Shown here one piece after another: positions 5,850 to 55,309 of a DNA stretch of 64,000 nt (the first letter of the stretch is position 1; every line of letters begins with the position of its first letter). The stretch is from the NCBI GenBank assembly GCA_951812955.1, contig OX638340.1:2048001-2112000 (forward strand), in the 5' to 3' direction. Made by a program: the position numbers and the translations under genes. The notes under the pieces were generated by a model that saw nothing but the letters and a program-made list of their open reading frames with translations, made no database searches and was not told where the DNA came from. Origin of the DNA: an uncultured Gemmatimonadota bacterium (GTDB lineage Bacteria > JAAXHH01).

Positions 5850-5923
5850 GCGCCTGTAGCTCAATTGGATAGAGCACCTGACTACGGATCAGGAGGTTGG
5901 GGGTTCGACTCCCTCCGGGCGTA
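5850..5923 (+). tRNA. tRNA-Arg (anticodon ACG)
   Basis: cloverleaf with 7-bp acceptor stem, TTCGACT T-loop, anticodon loop CTACGGA. Confidence 0.9.
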
Positions 5924-5944
5924 TATTACGCGGGACGCGGCGCC

Positions 5945-6438
5945 ATGAGAAGCAACGGCGGAGAACACGAGGGATGGCTTCGGCTGGCCCTTGAAGAAGC
6001 CAGGTCGGCCGGCGCTGCCGGCGATGTGCCTGTCGGAGCCGTGATCGTACACGACGGCGTTGTGATCGGACGGGGTCAGAATCGCGTGGAACGTCTGCGT
6101 GATCCCACCGCCCATGCCGAAATGCTCGCGATCCGCGACGCCAGCGCCGCACTGGGTTACGAGCGGCTTGCCGGTGCCGCACTCTACGTTACGCTTGAAC
6201 CCTGCGCCATGTGCGCGGGCGCGATCGTGCTGGCCCGCTTGCAGCGCCTTGTGTACGGTGCCGCCGATCCCAAGACCGGAGCATGTGGTTCACTGCGCGA
6301 TATCGTGCGGGACACCCGGTTGAATCACCAGGTGGAAGTTGCGGGAGGTGTTCTGGCAGAGACCTGTTCAGGCCTGCTGAAGGACTTCTTCAGATCGAAA
6401 CGCAGAACGGGAGATACGGCTGTCGAACCGAGGTTGCC

Positions 6439-6460
<22 letters not shown>
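5945..6460 (+). CDS. tadA: tRNA-specific adenosine-34 deaminase
   Basis: CDA fold zinc motifs 'HAEMLAI' and 'PCAMCAGA'; 3' end overlaps the start of tRNA-Ser by ~20 nt. Confidence 0.85.
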
Positions 6461-6528
<68 letters not shown>

Positions 6529-9048: not shown

Positions 9049-9133
9049 GGAGAGGTGCGAGAGCGGTCGAATCGGCACGCCTGGAGAGCGTGTGTTCACC
9101 ATGTGGACCGTGGGTTCGAATCCCACCCTCTCC
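9049..9133 (+). tRNA. tRNA-Ser (anticodon GGA)
   Basis: same acceptor/T-arm as the 6439 tRNA-Ser; anticodon loop CTGGAGA; long variable arm. Confidence 0.85.
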
Positions 9134-9229
9134 GTTGAAATCCGGGAAACCGGAATTGGAACGAAGGGGGAGTCGGATCTGGCCAGTCCTTGCCGGCCAT
9201 TTGGTACCGTGCCTCGTTCCACGAAATTT

Positions 9230-9302
9230 GGGGCAGTAGCTCAGTTGGGAGAGCGCCAGAATCGCAATCTGGAGGTCGGCGGTTCGATTCCGCTCTGCTC
9301 CA
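9230..9302 (+). tRNA. tRNA-Ala (anticodon CGC)
   Basis: GGGGCAG acceptor with G3:U70 Ala identity pair; anticodon loop ATCGCAA. Confidence 0.85.
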
Positions 9303-9376: not shown

Positions 9377-9650
9377 CGGTCGTGCTAGACGGGGAGTTAG
9401 CGGTGCCCTGTAACCCGCAATCCGCTACAGCGGGGTCGAATTCCCATCCCAAGGATCGCACTTGCGTCGCCGGTATGCGTTACAGCCGGTATTGAAAGTC
9501 AGGTCCTGCGCAACGTGACAACGCCCAACTCCGTCAGGACCGGAAGGTAGCAGCGGTAAGCGACTGAATCGTGTGCCGCGGGAGCGCCTGGCCGGAGCCG
9601 GCGGTACGGATGCCCCGATACGAGGAGATTCGAGGGTGGGTGCACGACCG
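9377..9650 (+). ncRNA. ffs: signal recognition particle RNA, long (Bacillus-type, Alu-domain-containing) form
   Basis: 5' segment 'CGGTCGTGCTAGACGGGGAGTTAGCGGTGCCCTGTAACCCGCAATCCGC...GAATTCCC' closely matches the B. subtilis scRNA 5' domain; domain IV motif 'GTCAGGACCGGAAGGTAGCAGC' at 9534-9555; 3' 'GCACGACCG' pairs with the 5' end; position just upstream of dnaX is the canonical ffs locus. Confidence 0.8.
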
Positions 9651-19873: not shown

Positions 19874-20856
19874 TCATCACCCAGACCCCCCTGCGCATCA
19901 GCTTCGCAGGCGGGCTGACGGATTTCTCCGATTTCTACGAGCGGGAAGACGGCCTGGTCGTCAGCGCGGCCATCGACAAATACATCTTCGTCATCATCAA
20001 TGAACGATTCGACGACCGGATTTACATCAACTATTCGAAAAGGGAGGCCGTCGATCATCCCGACGAGATCGAGCACGACCTGATCCGGGAGGCCCTGCGG
20101 CTTACCGGCGTGAGCCGGGGCGTGGAAATCACGACGCTGACGGACATTCCCGCCGAAGGATCTGGCCTGGGGTCCTCGAGCAGTATTACCGTGGGCCTAT
20201 TGAACGCCCTGTATACCTATTGCGGCAATCCGCAGCCCACGGAGAAACTGGCGCGGGACGCCTGCGAGATTGAAATCGACCGGTGCGCACAGCCAATCGG
20301 GAAGCAGGACCAGTACATCGCGGCCTACGGCGGGCTGCGCGGTTTCACTTTCCGGCCCGTCGGCGTGGAGGTGGAACACCTCGGCCTCGCCAACGGACAT
20401 GCGGAATGGTTGAGTGACAGTCTGATGCTGTTCTACACCAACAAGACGCGCAAGGCGGAAACCATCCTGCGCGAGCAGAAAGCGAATATGTCCGACAAAT
20501 TCACCCTCGTTAAAGAAATCAAATCCGTGGCGCAAGGTGTGCGTGCAGCCCTGACGGCCGGCCGGATCGACGGCATGGGCGAGCTGCTGGACCGGGGCTG
20601 GAAGTGGAAGTACAGGATGTCCGGCCTGGTGAGCAACGCCGAGATCGACTCCATGTACCGACGGGCCAAGGACGCCGGCGCCACCGGGGGCAAGGTATGC
20701 GGTGCGGGAGGCGGTGGTTTCCTGCTCCTGTTTTGTCCCGCATCCACCCGTTCCAGGGTCCGCGAAGCGCTGTCCGACTACAGGGAACTGCCCTTCAACC
20801 TGGAGCGGGACGGCACCAAGGTGATCTTCAATATGCGGAGGCAGGTATCAAAGTGA
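19870..20856 (+). CDS. hddA: GHMP kinase, D-glycero-alpha-D-manno-heptose 7-phosphate kinase-like
   Basis: 'MIITQTPLRISFAGGLTD' N-terminus and 'PAEGSGLGSSSS' motif typical of HddA; adjacent SIS isomerase gmhA. Confidence 0.75.
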   Translation: MIITQTPLRISFAGGLTDFSDFYEREDGLVVSAAIDKYIFVIINERFDDRIYINYSKREAVDHPDEIEHDLIREALRLTGVSRGVEITTLTDIPAEGSGLGSSSSITVGLLNALYTYCGNPQPTEKLARDACEIEIDRCAQPIGKQDQYIAAYGGLRGFTFRPVGVEVEHLGLANGHAEWLSDSLMLFYTNKTRKAETILREQKANMSDKFTLVKEIKSVAQGVRAALTAGRIDGMGELLDRGWKWKYRMSGLVSNAEIDSMYRRAKDAGATGGKVCGAGGGGFLLLFCPASTRSRVREALSDYRELPFNLERDGTKVIFNMRRQVSK

Positions 20857-20890
20857 TCCGCGAGAACCACGACTGGACACGGGAGGTCCG

Positions 20891-21457
20891 ATGATCCGCG
20901 AATACCTCGACTGGACACGGGAGGTCCTGGACCGGATCGATCCCGGCGAAGTGCAGGAACTCATCGATCTCCTGATGGACGCGCGGAAGAAAGGGCGAGG
21001 CATCTTCGTCATAGGGAACGGCGGCAGCGCGGCCACGGCCTCGCATTTCGCCGTGGACCTGGGCAAGGGCACGCTGCGCGGCACGGAAGATCAACCCCGA
21101 TTCCGGGTCAACAGCCTTACCGACAACCTCCCCTACGTCACCGCATGGGCAAACGACTTCGACTACGACCTGGTCTTCGAACAGCAACTTCGCAACCTGG
21201 GCGCCCCCGGCGATGTGGTCATCGGCATCAGCGCGTCGGGGAACAGTCCCAACGTGGTCCGCGCCCTGGAATTCGCCCGTACCGCCGGGATGGTTTCGGT
21301 CGCGATGACGGGGTTCTCAGGCGGCACGCTCATGGAAATCGCAGATCATTCTGTCCATGTCCCCGTAGACGACTACGGCATGGCGGAGAACATGCACATG
21401 CTCATCGTCCACATCATCGTCACGCAGACCACGTCCCGCGTAGCGAACGGCGAATGA
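20891..21457 (+). CDS. gmhA: SIS-domain sedoheptulose-7-phosphate isomerase
   Basis: 'IFVIGNGGSAATASHFAVDL' SIS motif; 188 aa. Confidence 0.8.
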   Translation: MIREYLDWTREVLDRIDPGEVQELIDLLMDARKKGRGIFVIGNGGSAATASHFAVDLGKGTLRGTEDQPRFRVNSLTDNLPYVTAWANDFDYDLVFEQQLRNLGAPGDVVIGISASGNSPNVVRALEFARTAGMVSVAMTGFSGGTLMEIADHSVHVPVDDYGMAENMHMLIVHIIVTQTTSRVANGE

Positions 21458-26201: not shown

Positions 26202-26276
26202 GGGCGATTAGCTCAGTTGGTTCAGAGCGCATGCCTTACAAGCATGAGGTCACTGGTTCGAATCCAGTATCGCCCA
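26202..26276 (+). tRNA. tRNA-Val (anticodon TAC)
   Basis: GGGCGAT acceptor, anticodon loop CTTACAA, GGTTCGAATCC T-loop. Confidence 0.85.
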
Positions 26277-26288
26277 TGCAGCAAATTC

Positions 26289-26363
26289 GGGGGCGTAGTT
26301 CAATCTGGTTAGAGCACTGCCCTGTCACGGCAGAAGTTGCGGGTTCGAGTCCCGTCGTCCCCG
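26289..26363 (+). tRNA. tRNA-Asp (anticodon GTC)
   Basis: anticodon loop CTGTCAC; TTCGAGT T-loop; discriminator G. Confidence 0.85.
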
Positions 26364-26421
26364 TTTATCTCGATCGATAGCCCGTCGAACATGCATGGTT
26401 CCGGCGGGCTATCTTGATTAT

Positions 26422-26505
26422 GCCGGAGTGGTGGAATTGGTAGACGCGAGGGACTCAAAATCCCTTGACCGCAAGGTCGTGTCGGTTCGAGTCCGACCTC
26501 CGGCA
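26422..26505 (+). tRNA. tRNA-Leu (anticodon CAA), long variable arm
   Basis: GCCGGAG acceptor, anticodon loop CTCAAAA, long extra arm. Confidence 0.85.
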
Positions 26506-26596
26506 TCCCGATCCGTCGCCGGACGGGTCCTACCGGGCACGGTAGCATCCCGAATGCGGCACGACCGCCGGTTACCACGCGGATTCCGCTTTTCAG

Positions 26597-26656
26597 CAGG
26601 CCCGGCACGCCCGACAGGCCCGGCAGGCCCGGCACGCCCGGTAGGCCCGGCACGCC
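26597..26656. repeat. short GC-rich tandem repeat (GGCCCGGCAcGCCCG-like units) between tRNA-Leu and M20 peptidase gene
   Basis: 4-5 imperfect copies of a ~10-14 bp unit read directly in sequence. Confidence 0.6.
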
Positions 26657-31384: not shown

Positions 31385-34057
31385 TTACAGCATGAGCGGA
31401 TTCGGCTTGTCTGCGTCGATCTCCAGGTCGGCCATTGCCTGTTTCAACTTTGACGCAGGCAACTTTCCGTCACGCATCAGTCCATAGAGCGCCGATAGCG
31501 TGATATAACGGGCGTCCACCTCGAAGAAATCGCGCAGGGCTCCGCGGCTGTCGCTGCGACCGAAACCGTCGGCTCCGAGCGTGATCAAATGGCCCGGGAA
31601 CCAGGCGGACACGGTGTCCGGAAGCGCCTTCACGTAGTCGCAGGCCGCCACGTAGGGACCCGGGACATCGGCCACGCAGGAGGTCACGTAGGGTACGCGC
31701 GGCGTTTCCTCGGGATGCATGATATTCCATCGTTCCACGTCCACCGCTTCGTTGTGCAGGGCTTTGTAACTGGTGATGCTCCACACGTCCGCGGCCACGC
31801 CGTACTGTTCTTCCAGGATTCGGCCGGCCTTCAATACCTCGTTCAGTATAGCACCGCTGCCAAAGAGCTGGACGCGCAGTTCGCCGTCCTGCTTCTCAGA
31901 TTTGCGGAACAGGTACATCCCCTTCAGGATGCCCTCCCGGGTGGCTTCGGGGTCACCGGGCATGGGCGGCATGGCGTAGTTCTCGTTGTGCACGGTCAGG
32001 TAGTAGAACACGTCATCCTGCTCTTCGTACATGCGCCGGATACCTTCTTCGATAATCACCGCCAGCTCGTACCCATAGGCCGGATCGTAGGCCAGCAGGT
32101 TCGGCACCGGGTAGGCCAGCAGGTGGCTGTTTCCGTCCTGGTGCTGGAGCCCCTCGCCCGCCAGCGTGGTGCGGCCCGACGTTGCGCCGACGAGGAAACC
32201 CTTGCAGCGCATGTCGCCCGCGGACCAGACCAGGTCGCCGACGCGCTGCAGCCCGAACATGGAATAGTAGATGAAGAAGGGGATGGTGTTGATGTCGTAG
32301 GTGGCGTAGGCCGTTCCGGCGGCGATGAAGGATGACATGGCGCCAGCTTCCGAGATGCCCTCTTCCAGCAACTGGCCGTCCTTCGACTCGCGGTAGTACA
32401 GGAGCGTTTCGCTGTCCACCGGGTCGTAGAGCTGTCCCACCGGGGAGTAGATGCCGGACTGCCGGAACAGGGCCTCCATGCCGAAGGTCCTCGCCTCGTC
32501 GGGCACGATGGGTACGATGAGGTTCCCGATCTCCTTGTCCCGCATCAGGTCCGACAGGATATTGACGAAGGCCATGGTCGTCGACACCTGCCGGTCGGTC
32601 CCCTCGTAGTACTTGCTGTACTTGTCCTGTTTCGGTACGCGCAGCGGCGTGAAGGTCGTTCTCCGTGACGGTACGTATCCGCCGAGTTCCCTGCGCCGTT
32701 CGTGCAGGTATCGAATCTCCTCGCTGTCCTCGGACGGCTTGTAGAAGGGCACTTCGGCCACGTCTTCGTCGGAAATCGGGATCCGGAATCGGTCCCGGAA
32801 GGCCAGCAGGTCGCTGTCTTCCATCTTCTTGATCTGGTGCGTGGCATTGGCTCCCTGCCCGCTGTCTCCCATTCCGTATCCCTTGATCGTCTTCATCAGG
32901 ATGACCGTCGGCGCGCCTTCGGTTTCCACGGCCGCCTTGTAGGCATGGTAGACTTTGAGCGGATCGTGGCCCCCCCGCCGCAGGTGCTGCAGCTGGGAAT
33001 CGGAGAGATGCTCCACCATCTTCTTGAGATCGGGATGGACGCCGAAGAACTTGTTCCGGATATACTCGCCCGATGCCATGCTGTACTTCTGGTACTGGCC
33101 GTCCACCGTCTCGTGCATGCGGTTCACGAGGAGTCCGTCGCCGTCCTTCTCCAGGAGGGGATCCCAGTCGCTGCCCCAGATGCACTTGATCACGTTCCAT
33201 CCCGCGCCGCGGAAGATGGCTTCCAGTTCCTGGATGATCTTGTGGTTGCCCCGTACCGGACCGTCGAGCCGCTGCAGGTTGCAGTTGATGACGAAGACCA
33301 GGTTGTCGAGCTGTTCCAGGACCGGCACGGTGATAGCGCCGAGGGACTCGGGTTCGTCCATCTCTCCGTCGCCCATCATGACCCAGACCTTGGAATCGCT
33401 CGGTTTCTTGATCCCCCGGTTCTCCAGGTATTTCATGAAACGGGCCTGGTAGATGCCGGTGATGGCGCCGAGGCCCATGGATACCGTGGGGAATTCCCAG
33501 AAGTCCGGCATCAGCCATGGATGGGGATAAGAAGACAGGCCGGGCGGGTTCACCTCGTGGCGGAAGTTCTTGAGCTGATCTTCGGAGATGCGTCCTTCCA
33601 GGTAGGCTCGCGCGTAGATACCCGGCGCGGCGTGGCCCTGGACGAAAAGCAGGTCGCCCTCGTGGCTCCCGTTACGGTTGCGGAAGAAGTGGTTGAATCC
33701 CACCTCGTAGAGCGTCGCGGAAGACGCGAAGGTGGAGATGTGGCCGCCGATGGAACCATCGGCCCGGTTGGCCCGGACCACCATGGCCAGCGCGTTCCAG
33801 CGCACGATGTTCTTGATGCGCCGTTCCAGATCGCGGTCGCCGGGATAGGGGTCCTGCAGTTCTACGGGGATTGAGTTTACATAGGGCGTATTGGCTGAGA
33901 AAGGAAGGCGCACACCCGATTCGGCGGCGCGGGACTCCAGCGCCGCGAGAATGCGGCGAGTCCGCTCCGGGTCGCCCTGCTTAATGACGTACTCGATCGA
34001 TTCGAGCCACTCGTGGAGTTCCAGCGATGCTACATCGGGTTCCACGTCCGTTGTCAT
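31385..34057 (-). CDS. aceE: pyruvate dehydrogenase E1 component, homodimeric type
   Basis: ~890 aa with AceE-type N-terminus and ThDP-binding 'GDGEMDEPES' motif. Confidence 0.9.
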   Translation of the reverse strand: MTTDVEPDVASLELHEWLESIEYVIKQGDPERTRRILAALESRAAESGVRLPFSANTPYVNSIPVELQDPYPGDRDLERRIKNIVRWNALAMVVRANRADGSIGGHISTFASSATLYEVGFNHFFRNRNGSHEGDLLFVQGHAAPGIYARAYLEGRISEDQLKNFRHEVNPPGLSSYPHPWLMPDFWEFPTVSMGLGAITGIYQARFMKYLENRGIKKPSDSKVWVMMGDGEMDEPESLGAITVPVLEQLDNLVFVINCNLQRLDGPVRGNHKIIQELEAIFRGAGWNVIKCIWGSDWDPLLEKDGDGLLVNRMHETVDGQYQKYSMASGEYIRNKFFGVHPDLKKMVEHLSDSQLQHLRRGGHDPLKVYHAYKAAVETEGAPTVILMKTIKGYGMGDSGQGANATHQIKKMEDSDLLAFRDRFRIPISDEDVAEVPFYKPSEDSEEIRYLHERRRELGGYVPSRRTTFTPLRVPKQDKYSKYYEGTDRQVSTTMAFVNILSDLMRDKEIGNLIVPIVPDEARTFGMEALFRQSGIYSPVGQLYDPVDSETLLYYRESKDGQLLEEGISEAGAMSSFIAAGTAYATYDINTIPFFIYYSMFGLQRVGDLVWSAGDMRCKGFLVGATSGRTTLAGEGLQHQDGNSHLLAYPVPNLLAYDPAYGYELAVIIEEGIRRMYEEQDDVFYYLTVHNENYAMPPMPGDPEATREGILKGMYLFRKSEKQDGELRVQLFGSGAILNEVLKAGRILEEQYGVAADVWSITSYKALHNEAVDVERWNIMHPEETPRVPYVTSCVADVPGPYVAACDYVKALPDTVSAWFPGHLITLGADGFGRSDSRGALRDFFEVDARYITLSALYGLMRDGKLPASKLKQAMADLEIDADKPNPLML

Positions 34058-34170
34058 CAAATTTCCCCTGGGTGCATCACGATCGGGCTTTCGCCCTTTA
34101 TCCATTCGAAAACATCGACACAAAATAGGGGCGTGGCAGGCCTTCTGTCAATCATTATATTGTTTGGGAG

Positions 34171-34310
34171 CGCGTCCCGGACCCCTTGCGGAAAGGCGTC
34201 CCGGACCCCTTCCCGGAAACGCGTCCGGGATGCCCCTGGCGCAGTGCCCGGAGTACCCTTGGCGCGGTGCCCGGAGTATGCTTCGGCGCAGTGCCCGGGA
34301 TTCCACCTGG
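34171..34310. repeat. six degenerate ~23-bp GC-rich direct repeats in the aceE / dapA-like divergent intergenic region
   Basis: units cgcgtcccggaccccttgcggaaag / gcgtcccggaccccttcccggaaa / cgcgtccgggatgcccctgg / cgcagtgcccggagtacccttgg / cgcggtgcccggagtatgcttcgg / cgcagtgcccgggattccacctgg. Confidence 0.7.
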
Positions 34311-34360
34311 AGAAGTGCGCAGGCAGTCCTCGAAGAGCGATGAAAACCTGGGAGGTTGGC

Positions 34361-35260
34361 ATGAGAAGCGACGGCTGGCACGGCATATTCACCATACCGC
34401 AGACGTCCTTTACAGAAGATGGCGCGCTGGACGAGGAGGGGCTGCGGAGGCAGATCGATTTCTGCGTGGAAGTGGGCGCCCACGGCGTCGTCTATCCCGT
34501 CATGGTGAGCGAGTTCTGGCTGCTGTCGGACGACGAGCGCAAACGGGTCGTAGACGTGGCCGTGGAACAGGTGGACGGCCGCATCCCCATGATCGCGGGT
34601 GTGGCGGGGGTGAGTACCGAAGTCGCCGTGACGTTCAGTTGCCACGCGCGCGAGGCCGGCGCCGACGGCGCGATCGCCCTGCCGCCCTACGTGCTCAAGC
34701 CCGGCCTGGACGGCCTGGTCGACTACTACCGGCAGGTCTCGAAGGCCGTGGGGAACCCAGTTTTCATCCAGAACTTCGATCCGCCCCTCGGATCCAGCCT
34801 TTCACCGGCATTCATCCGGGAGTTGCTGCTCGACATCCCGCACGTCAAGTACATCAAGGAAGAGATGATGCCCGCCGGTCATTCGGTGACGGCGCTGCTG
34901 GAGACCTGCGGGGACGAACTGCACGGCGTCTTCACCGGCTTCGGGGGACGCTGGTTCATCGACGAACTGAACCGCGGCGCGAGCGGCACCATGCCGGCCT
35001 GCGAGTTCACCGACGTGCTGGTCCGGCTCTACGAACGCTACCGGTCGGGCGACGTGGAAGGCGCAAGGGAGATCCATAACAGGCTCCTGCCCCTCATCAA
35101 CATCGAGAGCCTGCACGGCGTCATATTCTGCAAGGAGATCCTGAAGCGCCGCGGCCTGATCGCGTCGACGTACACGCGGGCCCCGGGGAAGCTGGACCGC
35201 CACGACCTCGCCGAAATCGACCGCCTCATCCGGGACGTGGGAGAACTGTTCCACGCCTAG
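34361..35260 (+). CDS. DapA/NAL-family class I aldolase (4-hydroxy-tetrahydrodipicolinate synthase / N-acetylneuraminate lyase family)
   Basis: DHDPS-family fold motifs ('GVVYPVMVSEFWLLSDDERKRV', 'AGVAG', Schiff-base Lys region); GGAGG 5 nt upstream of ATG. Confidence 0.75.
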   Translation: MRSDGWHGIFTIPQTSFTEDGALDEEGLRRQIDFCVEVGAHGVVYPVMVSEFWLLSDDERKRVVDVAVEQVDGRIPMIAGVAGVSTEVAVTFSCHAREAGADGAIALPPYVLKPGLDGLVDYYRQVSKAVGNPVFIQNFDPPLGSSLSPAFIRELLLDIPHVKYIKEEMMPAGHSVTALLETCGDELHGVFTGFGGRWFIDELNRGASGTMPACEFTDVLVRLYERYRSGDVEGAREIHNRLLPLINIESLHGVIFCKEILKRRGLIASTYTRAPGKLDRHDLAEIDRLIRDVGELFHA

Positions 35261-49853: not shown

Positions 49854-49933
49854 CGCGTCGCCCGGTCCGTTCGCGTTACCTGGTCCGATCGCGTCGCCCG
49901 GTTCGTTCGCGTTACCCGGTCCGATCGCGTCGC
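49854..49933. repeat. 36-bp tandem repeat, 2.2 copies, immediately upstream of the creatininase-family gene
   Basis: cgcgtcgcccggtccgttcgcgttacctggtccgat / cgcgtcgcccggttcgttcgcgttacccggtccgat / cgcgtcgc. Confidence 0.8.
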
Positions 49934-49957: not shown

Positions 49958-50707
49958 ATGTCCGATGCACTACCCCACGACCGGCCCGTACAGCTATGGA
50001 AAATGACCCGCAGGCAGTTCCGCGAGGGAATACACGACGGCAACCTCAGGGGAGCGATAATCCCCACGGGCAGCACCGAACAGCATAACGAACACCTGGA
50101 GATGTCCCACGACACCGCCAGCGCCGTACACGTGTCCGAGCGTGCGGCGCAGATGCTCTACCCGGAGGTCGTGGTCACCACGCCGCTGGCCATCGGCGTG
50201 TCTGAGCACTGGATGGACCACAAGGGCACGCTGACGACACGGCCCGAGATCTTCACGGAACTCCTCTACGACGTGGCCGACAGCATGAAAAGAGGTGGGA
50301 TCAACCATATCCTGGCGGTCAACGGACACGCCGGGAACGCCGGTCCCGTCATAAACGTGCTGGAGGATATCAAATCCCGCCTAGGGATCAATTTCGCATT
50401 CTGCAGCTATTGGGAAGCCTACACGCCGGAAATCGTCGAGAAGTACATGGAATCGAAGAATTGTCCCGGCCACGCCAGCGAGTTCGAGACGTCCTTCGCC
50501 TACTCGGCTTTCCCCCGGCACGTCCACTGGGAAGGCGTCGATTACGATTCGGCCAGGCTGTCCATCTCCCAGGCCGACCGGGCCGCACAGGATCGCGAGT
50601 TCCACCACGAAGCCAAACTCGCCGACGCCGTGAAGGGACAGGGCATGATCGACGCGGCGGTCGACTGGGTCGCGGCCAGGATGAATGCGATGATCGAGGG
50701 CGCCTGA
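49958..50707 (+). CDS. creatininase-family amidohydrolase (creatinine amidohydrolase/ArfB/MftE family)
   Basis: 'IIPTGSTEQHNEHLEM' and 'VNGHAGN' metal-binding motifs; AGGAG RBS. Confidence 0.8.
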   Translation: MSDALPHDRPVQLWKMTRRQFREGIHDGNLRGAIIPTGSTEQHNEHLEMSHDTASAVHVSERAAQMLYPEVVVTTPLAIGVSEHWMDHKGTLTTRPEIFTELLYDVADSMKRGGINHILAVNGHAGNAGPVINVLEDIKSRLGINFAFCSYWEAYTPEIVEKYMESKNCPGHASEFETSFAYSAFPRHVHWEGVDYDSARLSISQADRAAQDREFHHEAKLADAVKGQGMIDAAVDWVAARMNAMIEGA

Positions 50708-53172: not shown

Positions 53173-54630
53173 CTAGCGGCGGCGGTTTTCCGCGTCGATC
53201 CCGCCGCGCAACGGATCGAAGACCTTTTTCACGGTCTCGAACTGATCCTCGACCGCAGAGGGCCTGCCCAGCAACCGGTCGCTGACCATGCGCGCCGCCA
53301 CCGTGGCGTAGGCGTTGCCCCGGCCCGTGAAACCGGCAACGATGTGGACGCCCGGCGTTTCCGTCTCGCCCACAAATGGGCTGCTGTCGTAGGAGAAGCC
53401 CATGACGCCGCCCCAGCGGTGGGAGCGCCCGAGCGCGGCAAGGTGGGGGAAGGTGCTGTTGAATGACCGGTCGTTCGATCGTTGTACCGCCCGGGTGGGT
53501 CTTTCTTTGTAACCCCTGTAAGTCCGGATCTGCCGGCCCCTGCGCCTCAGGAAATGAAATCCCCGTTCGGCGCGGATATGGTGATTGCGCCCACCGCCGA
53601 AGAGCAGCCGGCCGCCTTCGCCTGGTCCGTCGTGCAACTGGCGCCAGAATTCCCACCCGTCGTTGGCGTAGAAGACGCCATTGAACAGCCGTTCTGAAAC
53701 GGGTTCCGTCGTGAAGACCTGTCCGCGTTGAGGAATGATGCGCCGTTCGTACCGGGCATCGAGCTGGGGCGTGTACGCGTTCATCCCCAGCAGCACGTGC
53801 TGCGTCCTGATCCTTCCGCCCGGTGTCTGGACCACGAGGCCGCCGGGTGATGAAACGCCCGAGCCGGCCCTTGAAACCGACGAGACGCCGCGTCCACCCG
53901 CGTCTCCGCGTCCACCCGCGTCTCCACGTCCATTCCCGTCCGCTCCGCGCCGCGCGATTGAGGTGACGGGCGTGTTTTCAAAGAACAGGACGCCCAGTCC
54001 GCTAGCGGCGCTGGCGAGGCCGCGCACGTACTTGACCGGGTGGAGTTCGCCGTCGAACTTGTTCCACAGGGCGCCGGCGAGCTGGGGGCTGCGCTTGATG
54101 CCGTATAGTCTGTCCTCGTCCAGGTACTCCACGTCGAAACCATCTTCCTGGAGAAGGTTGTATGATCGGACGATCCGTTCCAGGGGATCCGCGTGAGAAC
54201 CGCGGTCCGGCCGCTTCATCGCCATCACGTAGCTGCCGTGCCGGTAGTAGTCGCACTGTATTTTGTACTTCTCCATGAGACCGGCCATCAGATCATGATT
54301 CTCGAGGGCGATCCGCCACGCCTCCCCGGCCATCCTCCTGCCGTCCGCTCCGTACAGATCCGTCAATTCTTCCACGGCCTCGACGTAGTACTCATGGGTA
54401 CCGGCCAGCATGAACCCCCCGTTACGGCCCGTGGCGCCCGAGGCGACCTCGCGCCGTTCGAGCACGGCCACGCGCGCTCCGCCCTCGGCCAGGAACAGGG
54501 CGCCGGTCACCCCCGTCACGCCGCCGCCGATCACCACGACGTCCACATCGAGTTCGCCCGACAGGGGCCCCGAAGGTGTGTAAGGCATGTCCAGCCAGTA
54601 GGAGTCACGGATCATGGAGAGGTTCACCAA
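53173..54630 (-). CDS. FAD-dependent oxidoreductase (DAO family; D-amino acid/sarcosine oxidase-like) with internal Gly/Arg/Asp repeat insertion
   Basis: N-terminal 'DVVVIGGGVTGVTGALFLAEGG' dinucleotide motif; C-terminal DAO-like 'GFTGRGNAYA'; 15-bp tandem DNA repeat encoding GRGDAGGRGDAGGRG at ~53878-53930. Confidence 0.7.
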   Translation of the reverse strand: MVNLSMIRDSYWLDMPYTPSGPLSGELDVDVVVIGGGVTGVTGALFLAEGGARVAVLERREVASGATGRNGGFMLAGTHEYYVEAVEELTDLYGADGRRMAGEAWRIALENHDLMAGLMEKYKIQCDYYRHGSYVMAMKRPDRGSHADPLERIVRSYNLLQEDGFDVEYLDEDRLYGIKRSPQLAGALWNKFDGELHPVKYVRGLASAASGLGVLFFENTPVTSIARRGADGNGRGDAGGRGDAGGRGVSSVSRAGSGVSSPGGLVVQTPGGRIRTQHVLLGMNAYTPQLDARYERRIIPQRGQVFTTEPVSERLFNGVFYANDGWEFWRQLHDGPGEGGRLLFGGGRNHHIRAERGFHFLRRRGRQIRTYRGYKERPTRAVQRSNDRSFNSTFPHLAALGRSHRWGGVMGFSYDSSPFVGETETPGVHIVAGFTGRGNAYATVAARMVSDRLLGRPSAVEDQFETVKKVFDPLRGGIDAENRRR

Positions 54631-55012: not shown

Positions 55013-55309
55013 TTGGTTCGTAGACCATGGATGGACGTGACAATCAAGGCCGCGCTGATTGGCGCCGCAGTTCTGGTATATCTGGACCTGAAGGCCGAGA
55101 TCAGATCCGTACGGGTCGACCTGGGAACCAGGATCGACAGGTTGGAAACCAGGATGGGAACCAGGATCGGCAGGTTGGAAACCAGGATGGACAGGTTGGA
55201 AACCAAGGTGGACGGGTTGGAAACCAAAATCGACGAAGTACGGGGACATTTCAGGTTCGAAATGACCGAGCCAAACGAAAATCCGCCTCCCACGGACGTG
55301 AATCAATAG
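55013..55309 (+). CDS. small membrane-anchored coiled-coil protein built from 11-residue repeats (GTRIDRLETRM)
   Basis: N-terminal TM helix 'VTIKAALIGAAVLVYL'; 33-bp DNA tandem repeats 55120-55240 encoding (x-R-[IL]-[DG]-R-L-E-T-[RK]-[MV]-[GD]) units. Confidence 0.45.
   Translation: MVRRPWMDVTIKAALIGAAVLVYLDLKAEIRSVRVDLGTRIDRLETRMGTRIGRLETRMDRLETKVDGLETKIDEVRGHFRFEMTEPNENPPPTDVNQ

Follow-up and report, generated by a model that had tools for sequence, protein, structure and literature searches.

Genes and predicted promoters at the locus

The repeat array lies in a 303-nt intergenic region of the window (the whole 64-kb stretch of DNA that was analysed), and gene calls and Pfam domains confirmed its placement in the control region of two divergent genes, aceE and a DHDPS-family gene. 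On the minus strand, aceE (31385–34057, with its ATG start codon at 34057) encodes a pyruvate dehydrogenase E1 of 890 aa with matches to Pfam PDH_E1_M (2.4e-92) and to transketolase domains; its orthologues in two related contigs (L077 and L080) were also 890 aa long, and the E2 gene was located downstream of E1. On the plus strand, a gene of the DHDPS (DapA) family (34361–35260) encodes 299 aa matching Pfam PF00701 (2.8e-44, profile positions 3–270), and its homologues are named ‘dihydrodipicolinate synthase family protein’. The neighbouring genes encoded peptidase M20, YchF, E2, E1, the DHDPS-family protein, DUF6785/6784, an FtsX/M28 protein, a xylose-isomerase-like protein, and ATCase.

The Shine–Dalgarno sequence and start codon of the DHDPS-family gene occupy 34350–34363 on the plus strand (GGGAGG at 34350–34355 and ATG at 34361), and the sequence GGGAGGnnGGCATG was conserved in the relatives. 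The Pfam DHDPS profile begins at residue 7 counted from ATG 34361, which is therefore the true start. In minimum-free-energy folds of the window and of two relatives (L001 and L011), GGGAGG was partly paired in a small hairpin, AACCU/AGGUU (34343–34358 in the window), which was replaced by a CUCC...GGAG pairing in leaders of the L006 type.

Two promoter-like sites were found between the aceE start and the array, both of them consensus matches only, compared with an average of 0.2 such sites in shuffled sequences. The stronger one (34122–34151, minus strand) comprises TTGACA (34151–34146), an 18-nt spacer, and TATTTT (34127–34122), with 10 of 12 consensus matches, and would place the aceE transcription start site (TSS) at about 34115. 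It recurred in L004 and L015, and the low-GC locus L025 had TTGACT-16-CATAAT according to the promoter scan. The weaker site (34133–34161, plus strand) comprises GTGGCA, a 17-nt spacer, and TATATT, with 9 of 12 matches, and predicts a TSS at about 34168; it was also present in L004 and was not called in L015 or L025. If this plus-strand promoter is real, the whole array would form the 5' leader of the DHDPS-family mRNA, and given the predicted TSS positions it would also lie upstream of the aceE promoter.

A 14-mer, TCAATCATTATATT (34148–34161), showed no change across the window and 19 related loci, even in L025. Its position overlaps that of the aceE −35 hexamer together with the adjacent upstream AT-rich stretch (or that of the plus-strand −10), and it may combine a −35 with a UP-like element or be an additional regulator site. 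The aceE 5' untranslated region and promoter core as a whole (CATTCGAAAACAnCGACnCAAAATAGGGGCGTGGCACCCCTTCTGTCAATCATTATATT; 34058–34161 in the window and its equivalents in L001–L025) were conserved far above four-fold degenerate sites. Neither the core nor the repeat units could be read as a sigma-54 or ECF promoter, since by eye the consensus spacing does not fit.

Structure of the repeat array

The array consists of head-to-tail, imperfect, GC-rich direct repeats at 34172–34314, comprising six units of 23–25 nt on the plus strand followed by a decayed seventh. Tandem Repeats Finder (TRF) reported three overlapping tracts, i.e., 34171–34230 (period 24, 2.4 copies, score 92), 34225–34318 (period 23, 4.0 copies, score 84), and 34233–34298 (period 23, 2.8 copies, score 95). 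A separate repeat search recovered the 14-mer GGCGCRGTGCCCGG three times at a spacing of 23–24 nt and the motif GGrArsGCGTCCsGGA three times at a spacing of 24–25 nt. When the intergenic region was shuffled 200 times with dinucleotide frequencies preserved, TRF scores peaked at 43 and stayed below 50 in every case; the array, with scores of 84–95, is therefore real and non-random. The six imperfect GC-rich repeats reported in the initial annotation were thus recovered by sequence inspection, TRF, and the repeat search, and they stood out against the shuffled sequences.

The units fall into two types. Units 1 (34172–34195) and 2 (34196–34220) are of A type, with lengths of 24 and 25 nt, respectively, the consensus GCGTCCCGGACCCCTTsCGGAAAs, and a repeat-search identity of 87%. 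Units 3 (34221–34243), 4 (34244–34266), 5 (34267–34290), and 6 (34291–34314) are of B type, with lengths of 23–24 nt and the consensus GyGyCCGGrrTnnCCyyGGmGmr; they scored 33.8, 25.2, 13.2, and 23.4 bits, respectively, against a covariance model (R1). Pairwise identity among the units was 67–93%, and the start-to-start spacings were 24, 25, 23, 23, and 24 nt. The segment at 34315–34338 on the plus strand (GTGCGCAGGCAG...), assigned as unit 7 by leader comparison, matches the GCGCGC found after the single unit in genomes that carry one unit, and probably represents either a decayed terminal unit or the 3' flank of an ancestral single box.

The units abut without spacers, and a CRISPR array was rejected because they are contiguous and lack unique spacers, in agreement with the earlier view of the tract as unlike CRISPR. 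A minus-strand G-quadruplex was also rejected, as no motif was present at loops of ≤7 nt, and the array motif found at loops of ≤12 nt was one of 16 in the window.

Copy-number variation among related genomes

Scanning species-representative genomes with the DHDPS-family protein yielded 25 close loci (L001–L025; 74–94% protein identity), all of them in metagenome-assembled genomes labelled Latescibacterota, Gemmatimonadota, or ‘bacterium’; several of the isolate names suggest a sponge origin. An exact look-up of the window's own DHDPS-family protein gave no entry in the collection searched. The DHDPS-family gene was still divergent from aceE in 19 of the 25 loci. Four more contigs (L077–L080) were added through cluster members.

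Across the 20 related genomes that retain the promoter core, the arrays ranged from no unit to about 7 units; copy number thus differs between relatives, a comparison that the initial annotation had proposed. No unit was present in L005 and L025, one in L004, L014, L016, L017, L021, and L022, two in L007, L023, and L077–L079, four to five in L009, L010, and L013, and six to seven in L001, L002, L006, and L011, as in the window. In genome pairs whose flanking genes were 92–96% identical, the leaders were only 61–90% identical, and the gaps in the leader alignments (22–25, 45–46, 66–71, and 93 nt) corresponded to 1–4 whole units. Some distal units were orthologous between genomes (units 3–6 of L002 and L011, and unit 3 of L009 and L013), others were recent local duplicates (units 4/5 in the window, and units 4/6 and 3/5 in L006), and the distal units of L001, L002, and L011 had decayed. 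This variation was documented between species-level genomes rather than strains. Length polymorphism was not seen in the one strain-level case examined, in which three independent samples with an identical DHDPS-family protein carried an identical two-unit allele.

The distance from the promoter core to the ATG was 97–227 nt in the relatives, and its differences were not multiples of three; together with unit lengths of 23–25 nt, this indicates that the tract is untranslated. A translated low-complexity N-terminal extension of the DHDPS-family protein, which had been considered as a condition that would overturn the description of the repeats as non-coding, was accordingly rejected, since the reading frame is not kept and the DHDPS profile starts at residue 7 of the protein read from ATG 34361. 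The DHDPS-family proteins of several relatives did carry a variable Gly/His/Gln-rich N-terminal repeat (L005 at 5944–6010, and L007, L012, L016, and L024 near 6000; e.g., MGSDGRHGEHGEQGRQERHGWHG), and the window protein has only MRSDGWHG at this place. Duplication-prone sequence thus reaches the coding start in some lineages.

In four genomes (L008, L012, L024, and L080), the whole array was replaced by 1.0–5.3 kb of low-GC DNA, and both genes were kept. As these four had lost the array and two others (L005 and L025) had no units, the array is dispensable. The inserted DNA (L008, 4981–6000; L012, 663–6000; L024, 4831–6000; L080, 441–1500) had a GC content of 44–47% and in each genome was joined at TCAATCATTAT^CTAT, in the segment that separates the aceE promoter from the DHDPS-family gene; in L012, the island contained open reading frames (ORFs) of 338, 531, and 414 aa. 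The junction has the appearance of a hot spot at which accessory DNA is repeatedly inserted. The leader of L015 contained a terminator-like hairpin, GCCTGCATTCAGGCTTTTT (5950–5975), upstream of the ribosome-binding site; it scored below the terminator-scan threshold and was not seen in other genomes.

Conservation of the promoter-proximal box

The 5' half of unit 1 (34172–34182, plus strand; GCGTCCCGGAC) was delimited as a promoter-proximal box by its offset and conservation. The 11-nt box has the consensus GCGYCCSGGAY and starts about 15 nt past the invariant TCAATCATTATATT core; the first CCBGG pentamer begins 14–15 nt after TATATT in 17 of 21 genomes. This fixed position was occupied by the single unit in one-unit genomes and by the A unit in multi-unit genomes.

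Identity over 16 genomes was 89% for the first 11 nt of the first B unit (B1, unit 3 of the window; GCGYCCGGGAT), compared with 67–79% for four-fold degenerate sites, a figure that refers to the equivalent 11-mer of the B1 unit and to 11 positions in related, non-independent genomes. The 3' half of B1 was 59% identical. In the one-unit group, the box was 96% identical, compared with 67% for four-fold sites and 62% for the rest of the leader. Whole units gave a different picture: among the 11 multi-unit (‘G-group’) genomes, the A unit and the first B unit were 80 and 73% identical, respectively, and four-fold sites 79–81%, so that whole units diverge at about the neutral rate. Because the box is conserved in sequence and kept at a fixed offset, one short box looks constrained and the rest does not, and it is the promoter-proximal box alone that looks like a functional element. 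It is a candidate for a short protein-recognition site: its centre would lie at about −62 from the predicted aceE TSS, an activator-type position, and at about +10 from the predicted plus-strand TSS, a position suited to an operator or leader element.

These data also bear on the possibility that the array arose by pure neutral slippage and has no functional part, the conservation of the box being due only to the evolutionary closeness of the genomes and to their GC-biased composition. The near-neutral rate at which whole units diverge, the absence or replacement of the array in six genomes, and the occurrence of several unrelated minisatellites in the same window are all consistent with this reading. 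However, the levels of box identity over 16 genomes and within the one-unit group, as well as the offset from the core that is fixed in most genomes, argue against it, and we regard a history entirely free of function as quite improbable.

Candidate roles in transcriptional regulation

The initial annotation had proposed iterated operator-like sites that bind a regulator cooperatively. In its full form, this would be a functional operator array in which a regulator binds every unit (GYGYCCSGGAT), oligomerises along the DNA, and controls aceE and/or the DHDPS-family gene, with the number of units setting the strength of control. Consistent with such an array, all units share one orientation, with every significant model match on the plus strand; the 5' half is the best-kept part, with G3, C5, C6, and G8 at least 90% conserved in 27 units; the proximal copy is kept in sequence and position; and, relative to the predicted aceE TSS, the array would span about −57 to about −200. 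Many distal units of the window, L006, L010, and L013 also keep a good copy of the 5' half, which could reflect selection for several sites instead of recent duplication.

Several observations nevertheless speak against one binding site per unit. Unit number changes from 0 to about 7 where the flanking genes are 92–96% identical, distal units diverge at about the rate of four-fold sites and have decayed in three genomes, and four genomes have lost the array and kept both genes. At 10.5 bp per turn, the 23–25 bp spacing would rotate each site by about 70–140 degrees relative to the one before it. The motif shows no enrichment elsewhere, and no transcription-factor gene lies within 26–45 kb of the window; likewise, domain annotation revealed no linked regulator gene among the neighbours of the array. 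We therefore consider an operator function for the array as a whole unlikely: the earlier proposal agrees in part with the conserved proximal box, and cooperative binding along the distal units, which are near-neutral, out of helical phase, and lost with the array in four relatives, is improbable.

Comparison with a known regulator site of the pyruvate dehydrogenase genes gave no match. The PdhR box is AATTGGTnnnACCAATT, and inspection of the window and the leaders found no unit with TGGTnnnACCA, so the similarity to PdhR/GntR-type operators that had been put forward for checking was not found; the A box GTCCCGGAC fits only a very generic GT-Nx-AC pattern. A direct half-site model (CCSGGA at 10 + 13 nt) was rejected because variant units with CCGAGA/TTCGGA lose the direct similarity. 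The suggestion of a phase-variable tract was not supported, given the long, imperfect units and the identical allele in three independent samples; a phase-variable simple sequence repeat was rejected since the units are 23–25 nt long and 67–93% identical rather than short, identical repeats of 1–9 nt.

A more specific proposal is that the array acts as a tuning knob, in which a regulator or RNA polymerase would read the GYGYCCSGGAT boxes and the gain or loss of boxes would reset the balance between the DHDPS-family aldolase, taken here as pyruvate-producing, and pyruvate dehydrogenase across sponge-symbiont species. We hold this to be improbable on the present sequence comparisons; if true, it would provide a new regulator–motif pair and a case of copy-number-encoded regulation.

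RNA secondary structure of the leader

If the array is transcribed from the plus-strand promoter, it could act as a structured 5' leader RNA, in which a hairpin in each unit (CCGGG/CCUGG) would influence how stable the DHDPS-family mRNA is or how well it is translated. Unit 1 begins just after the predicted plus-strand TSS, the units can be drawn as 4–6 bp hairpins when G–U pairs are used, and a 10-pair hairpin was predicted in common for the one-unit genomes, with a compensatory change in one pair. In addition, the z-scores of the window fold were −1.63 (plus strand) and −0.52 (minus strand), and G·T mismatches outnumbered A·C mismatches (17 and 8, respectively).

Against this, the minimum free energy of the whole leader was no better than that of shuffled sequences in most of the 19 genomes tested, and the two strands did not differ consistently. 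In a strand-symmetric count, the best 5-bp Watson–Crick hairpin per unit scored 3.83 pairs, compared with 3.72 ± 0.075 in shuffled units. As CCSGG is self-complementary, some hairpin potential is to be expected in any case. No pair was changed on both sides in the canonical units, the 3' half of the putative stem was the least conserved part (59%), and a covariance model with a 5-bp stem recovered the units and detected no covariation. Rfam, run on the whole window, returned no hit for the region at the gathering threshold, and relaxing the search to E-values of up to 10 produced only chance matches to miRNA and IRES families. A leader-RNA function is thus possible but unsupported, and we consider it doubtful.

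A long inverted repeat between the A and B1 units, TCCCGGAC-N15-GTCCGGGA, was rejected by inspection, as changes in L007, L023, and L006 break its pairs without compensation; it is a trivial consequence of each box being near-palindromic.

Search for dispersed copies and other minisatellites

A profile HMM of the B units (nhmmer) and the covariance model R1 were run against the window and L001–L025 (368 kb in total), i.e., 64 kb of a roughly 3.9-Mb genome and the same region of roughly 13 kb in each relative. In these 368 kb, every match with E<0.5 (nhmmer) or E<0.13 (covariance model) fell in the aceE/DHDPS-family intergenic region on the plus strand, and nothing above noise was detected by either model elsewhere in the 64-kb window. 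Elsewhere in the window, the 5' half-motif (the 10-mer GYGYCCSGGA) was counted five times, where 4.5 occurrences were expected. A scan of metagenome contigs with the 20-nt unit pattern returned 41 matches, all of them isolated and in unrelated contexts; none had the promoter core nearby and none was in tandem. The clade seems to be absent from the scanned metagenome collection.

The initial annotation had linked the array to similar minisatellites at 26597–26656 and 49854–49933 and suggested a genome-wide repeat family. Both tracts exist according to TRF (26596–26656 and 49854–49933), but their units are unrelated to the aceE-side unit; as, in addition, no copy of that unit was found in the rest of the 64-kb window or in about 300 kb of DNA from relatives, the idea of a genome-wide family was rejected. 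A dispersed family of the REP/BIME kind, connected to these two arrays, would accord with the GC-rich, weakly palindromic units and with the presence of several other GC-rich intergenic arrays in the window. It is nonetheless very improbable in view of the lack of any further copy by HMM or covariance model, the chance frequency of the half-motif, the unrelated 9-nt and 18-nt units of the other arrays, the single orientation of all copies, and the isolated, chance-like character of the metagenome matches.

Each of the other minisatellites in the window had its own unrelated unit. They comprised 6.8 copies of the 9-mer GCAGGCCCG beside a tRNA gene (26596–26656), an 18/36-nt unit upstream of the ORF at 49958 (49854–49933), an 18-nt unit (53888–53940), a 21/33-nt unit (55122–55234), and 1.9 copies of a 38-nt unit (20854–20927). 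The genome thus seems generally prone to tandem duplication. The window also contained a large-type bacterial SRP RNA (9380–9647; 160 bits) and three tRNA clusters (5850–6523, 9049–9302, and 26202–26505).

Proposed origin and significance

We favour, with a probability of about 0.55, the interpretation that the array is a locus-specific minisatellite, or variable-number tandem repeat (VNTR), that was seeded by a small cis-regulatory box and whose extra copies are mostly passengers. An ancestral single segment of ~23 nt beside the shared aceE/DHDPS-family promoter core would have undergone head-to-tail duplication through slippage or unequal recombination, and its copies would then have been gained, lost, and degraded independently across the lineages of a sponge-associated clade, in which the array changes fast. 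The extra copies would be largely passengers; at most, they would make the DHDPS-family 5' leader longer or shorter, shift its composition, and change the DNA upstream of the aceE promoter. By analogy with the clbR VNTR of E. coli, such changes could modestly tune expression.

A striking GC-rich repeat in a control region of central metabolism can therefore be a local, mostly neutral expansion, and the array should not be annotated as CRISPR-like, as a REP-like family, or as riboswitch-like. What remains of practical use is the conserved 11-nt box by the aceE promoter core, a candidate site for a regulator in this uncultured clade of sponge symbionts. Array length could, in addition, be used as a marker to distinguish related species or strains of symbionts in metagenomes. 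Should unit number alter expression, the array would add another case of VNTR-tuned transcription in bacteria, like that of clbR.

Comparison with known repeat systems

The aceE-side array fits the class of bacterial intergenic minisatellites, or VNTRs, and represents a known architecture: its tandem copies exceed chance, and related genomes differ by whole units. Like the minisatellites used in MIRU-VNTR and MLVA typing, it is intergenic, is built head to tail from imperfect units of tens of nucleotides, and gains and loses whole units. Mycobacterial MIRU-VNTRs, however, form a dispersed family in which about 40 loci in each genome have a unit in common, and their units measure 40–100 bp, whereas the aceE-side unit was found at one locus only in the 368 kb searched.

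REP/BIME elements resemble the aceE-side units in being GC-rich, weakly palindromic, extragenic, about 20–40 nt long, and sometimes clustered. They occur as hundreds of dispersed copies whose orientation alternates within clusters; the aceE-side array, in contrast, occupies a single locus, consists of direct copies, and has a hairpin potential similar to that of shuffled sequences. Iteron and operator arrays likewise consist of direct repeats of similar length by promoters, and the conserved first copy of the aceE-side array occupies a position like that of a regulator site. In functional arrays of this kind, the sites are conserved in number, spacing, and sequence, whereas the number of aceE-side units varies from 0 to about 7, their spacing is out of helical phase, and the distal copies are near-neutral.

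Among documented architectures, the one most like the aceE-side array is the VNTR in the clbR 5' untranslated region, located in the divergent clbR–clbB intergenic region of the E. coli pks (colibactin) island (PMC7364221). That tract consists of perfect 8-bp units present in 2–20 copies across isolates, and its size has an about two-fold effect on expression (PMC7364221). Both are tandem tracts in a divergent intergenic region and lie downstream of the TSS of one of the genes, a position that is predicted for the aceE-side array. The two differ in that the aceE-side units are 23–25 nt long, imperfect, and of two sub-types, and in that variation was seen between species-level genomes rather than between isolates; the role of the two tracts, either tuning expression or being carried as a passenger, is likely the same.
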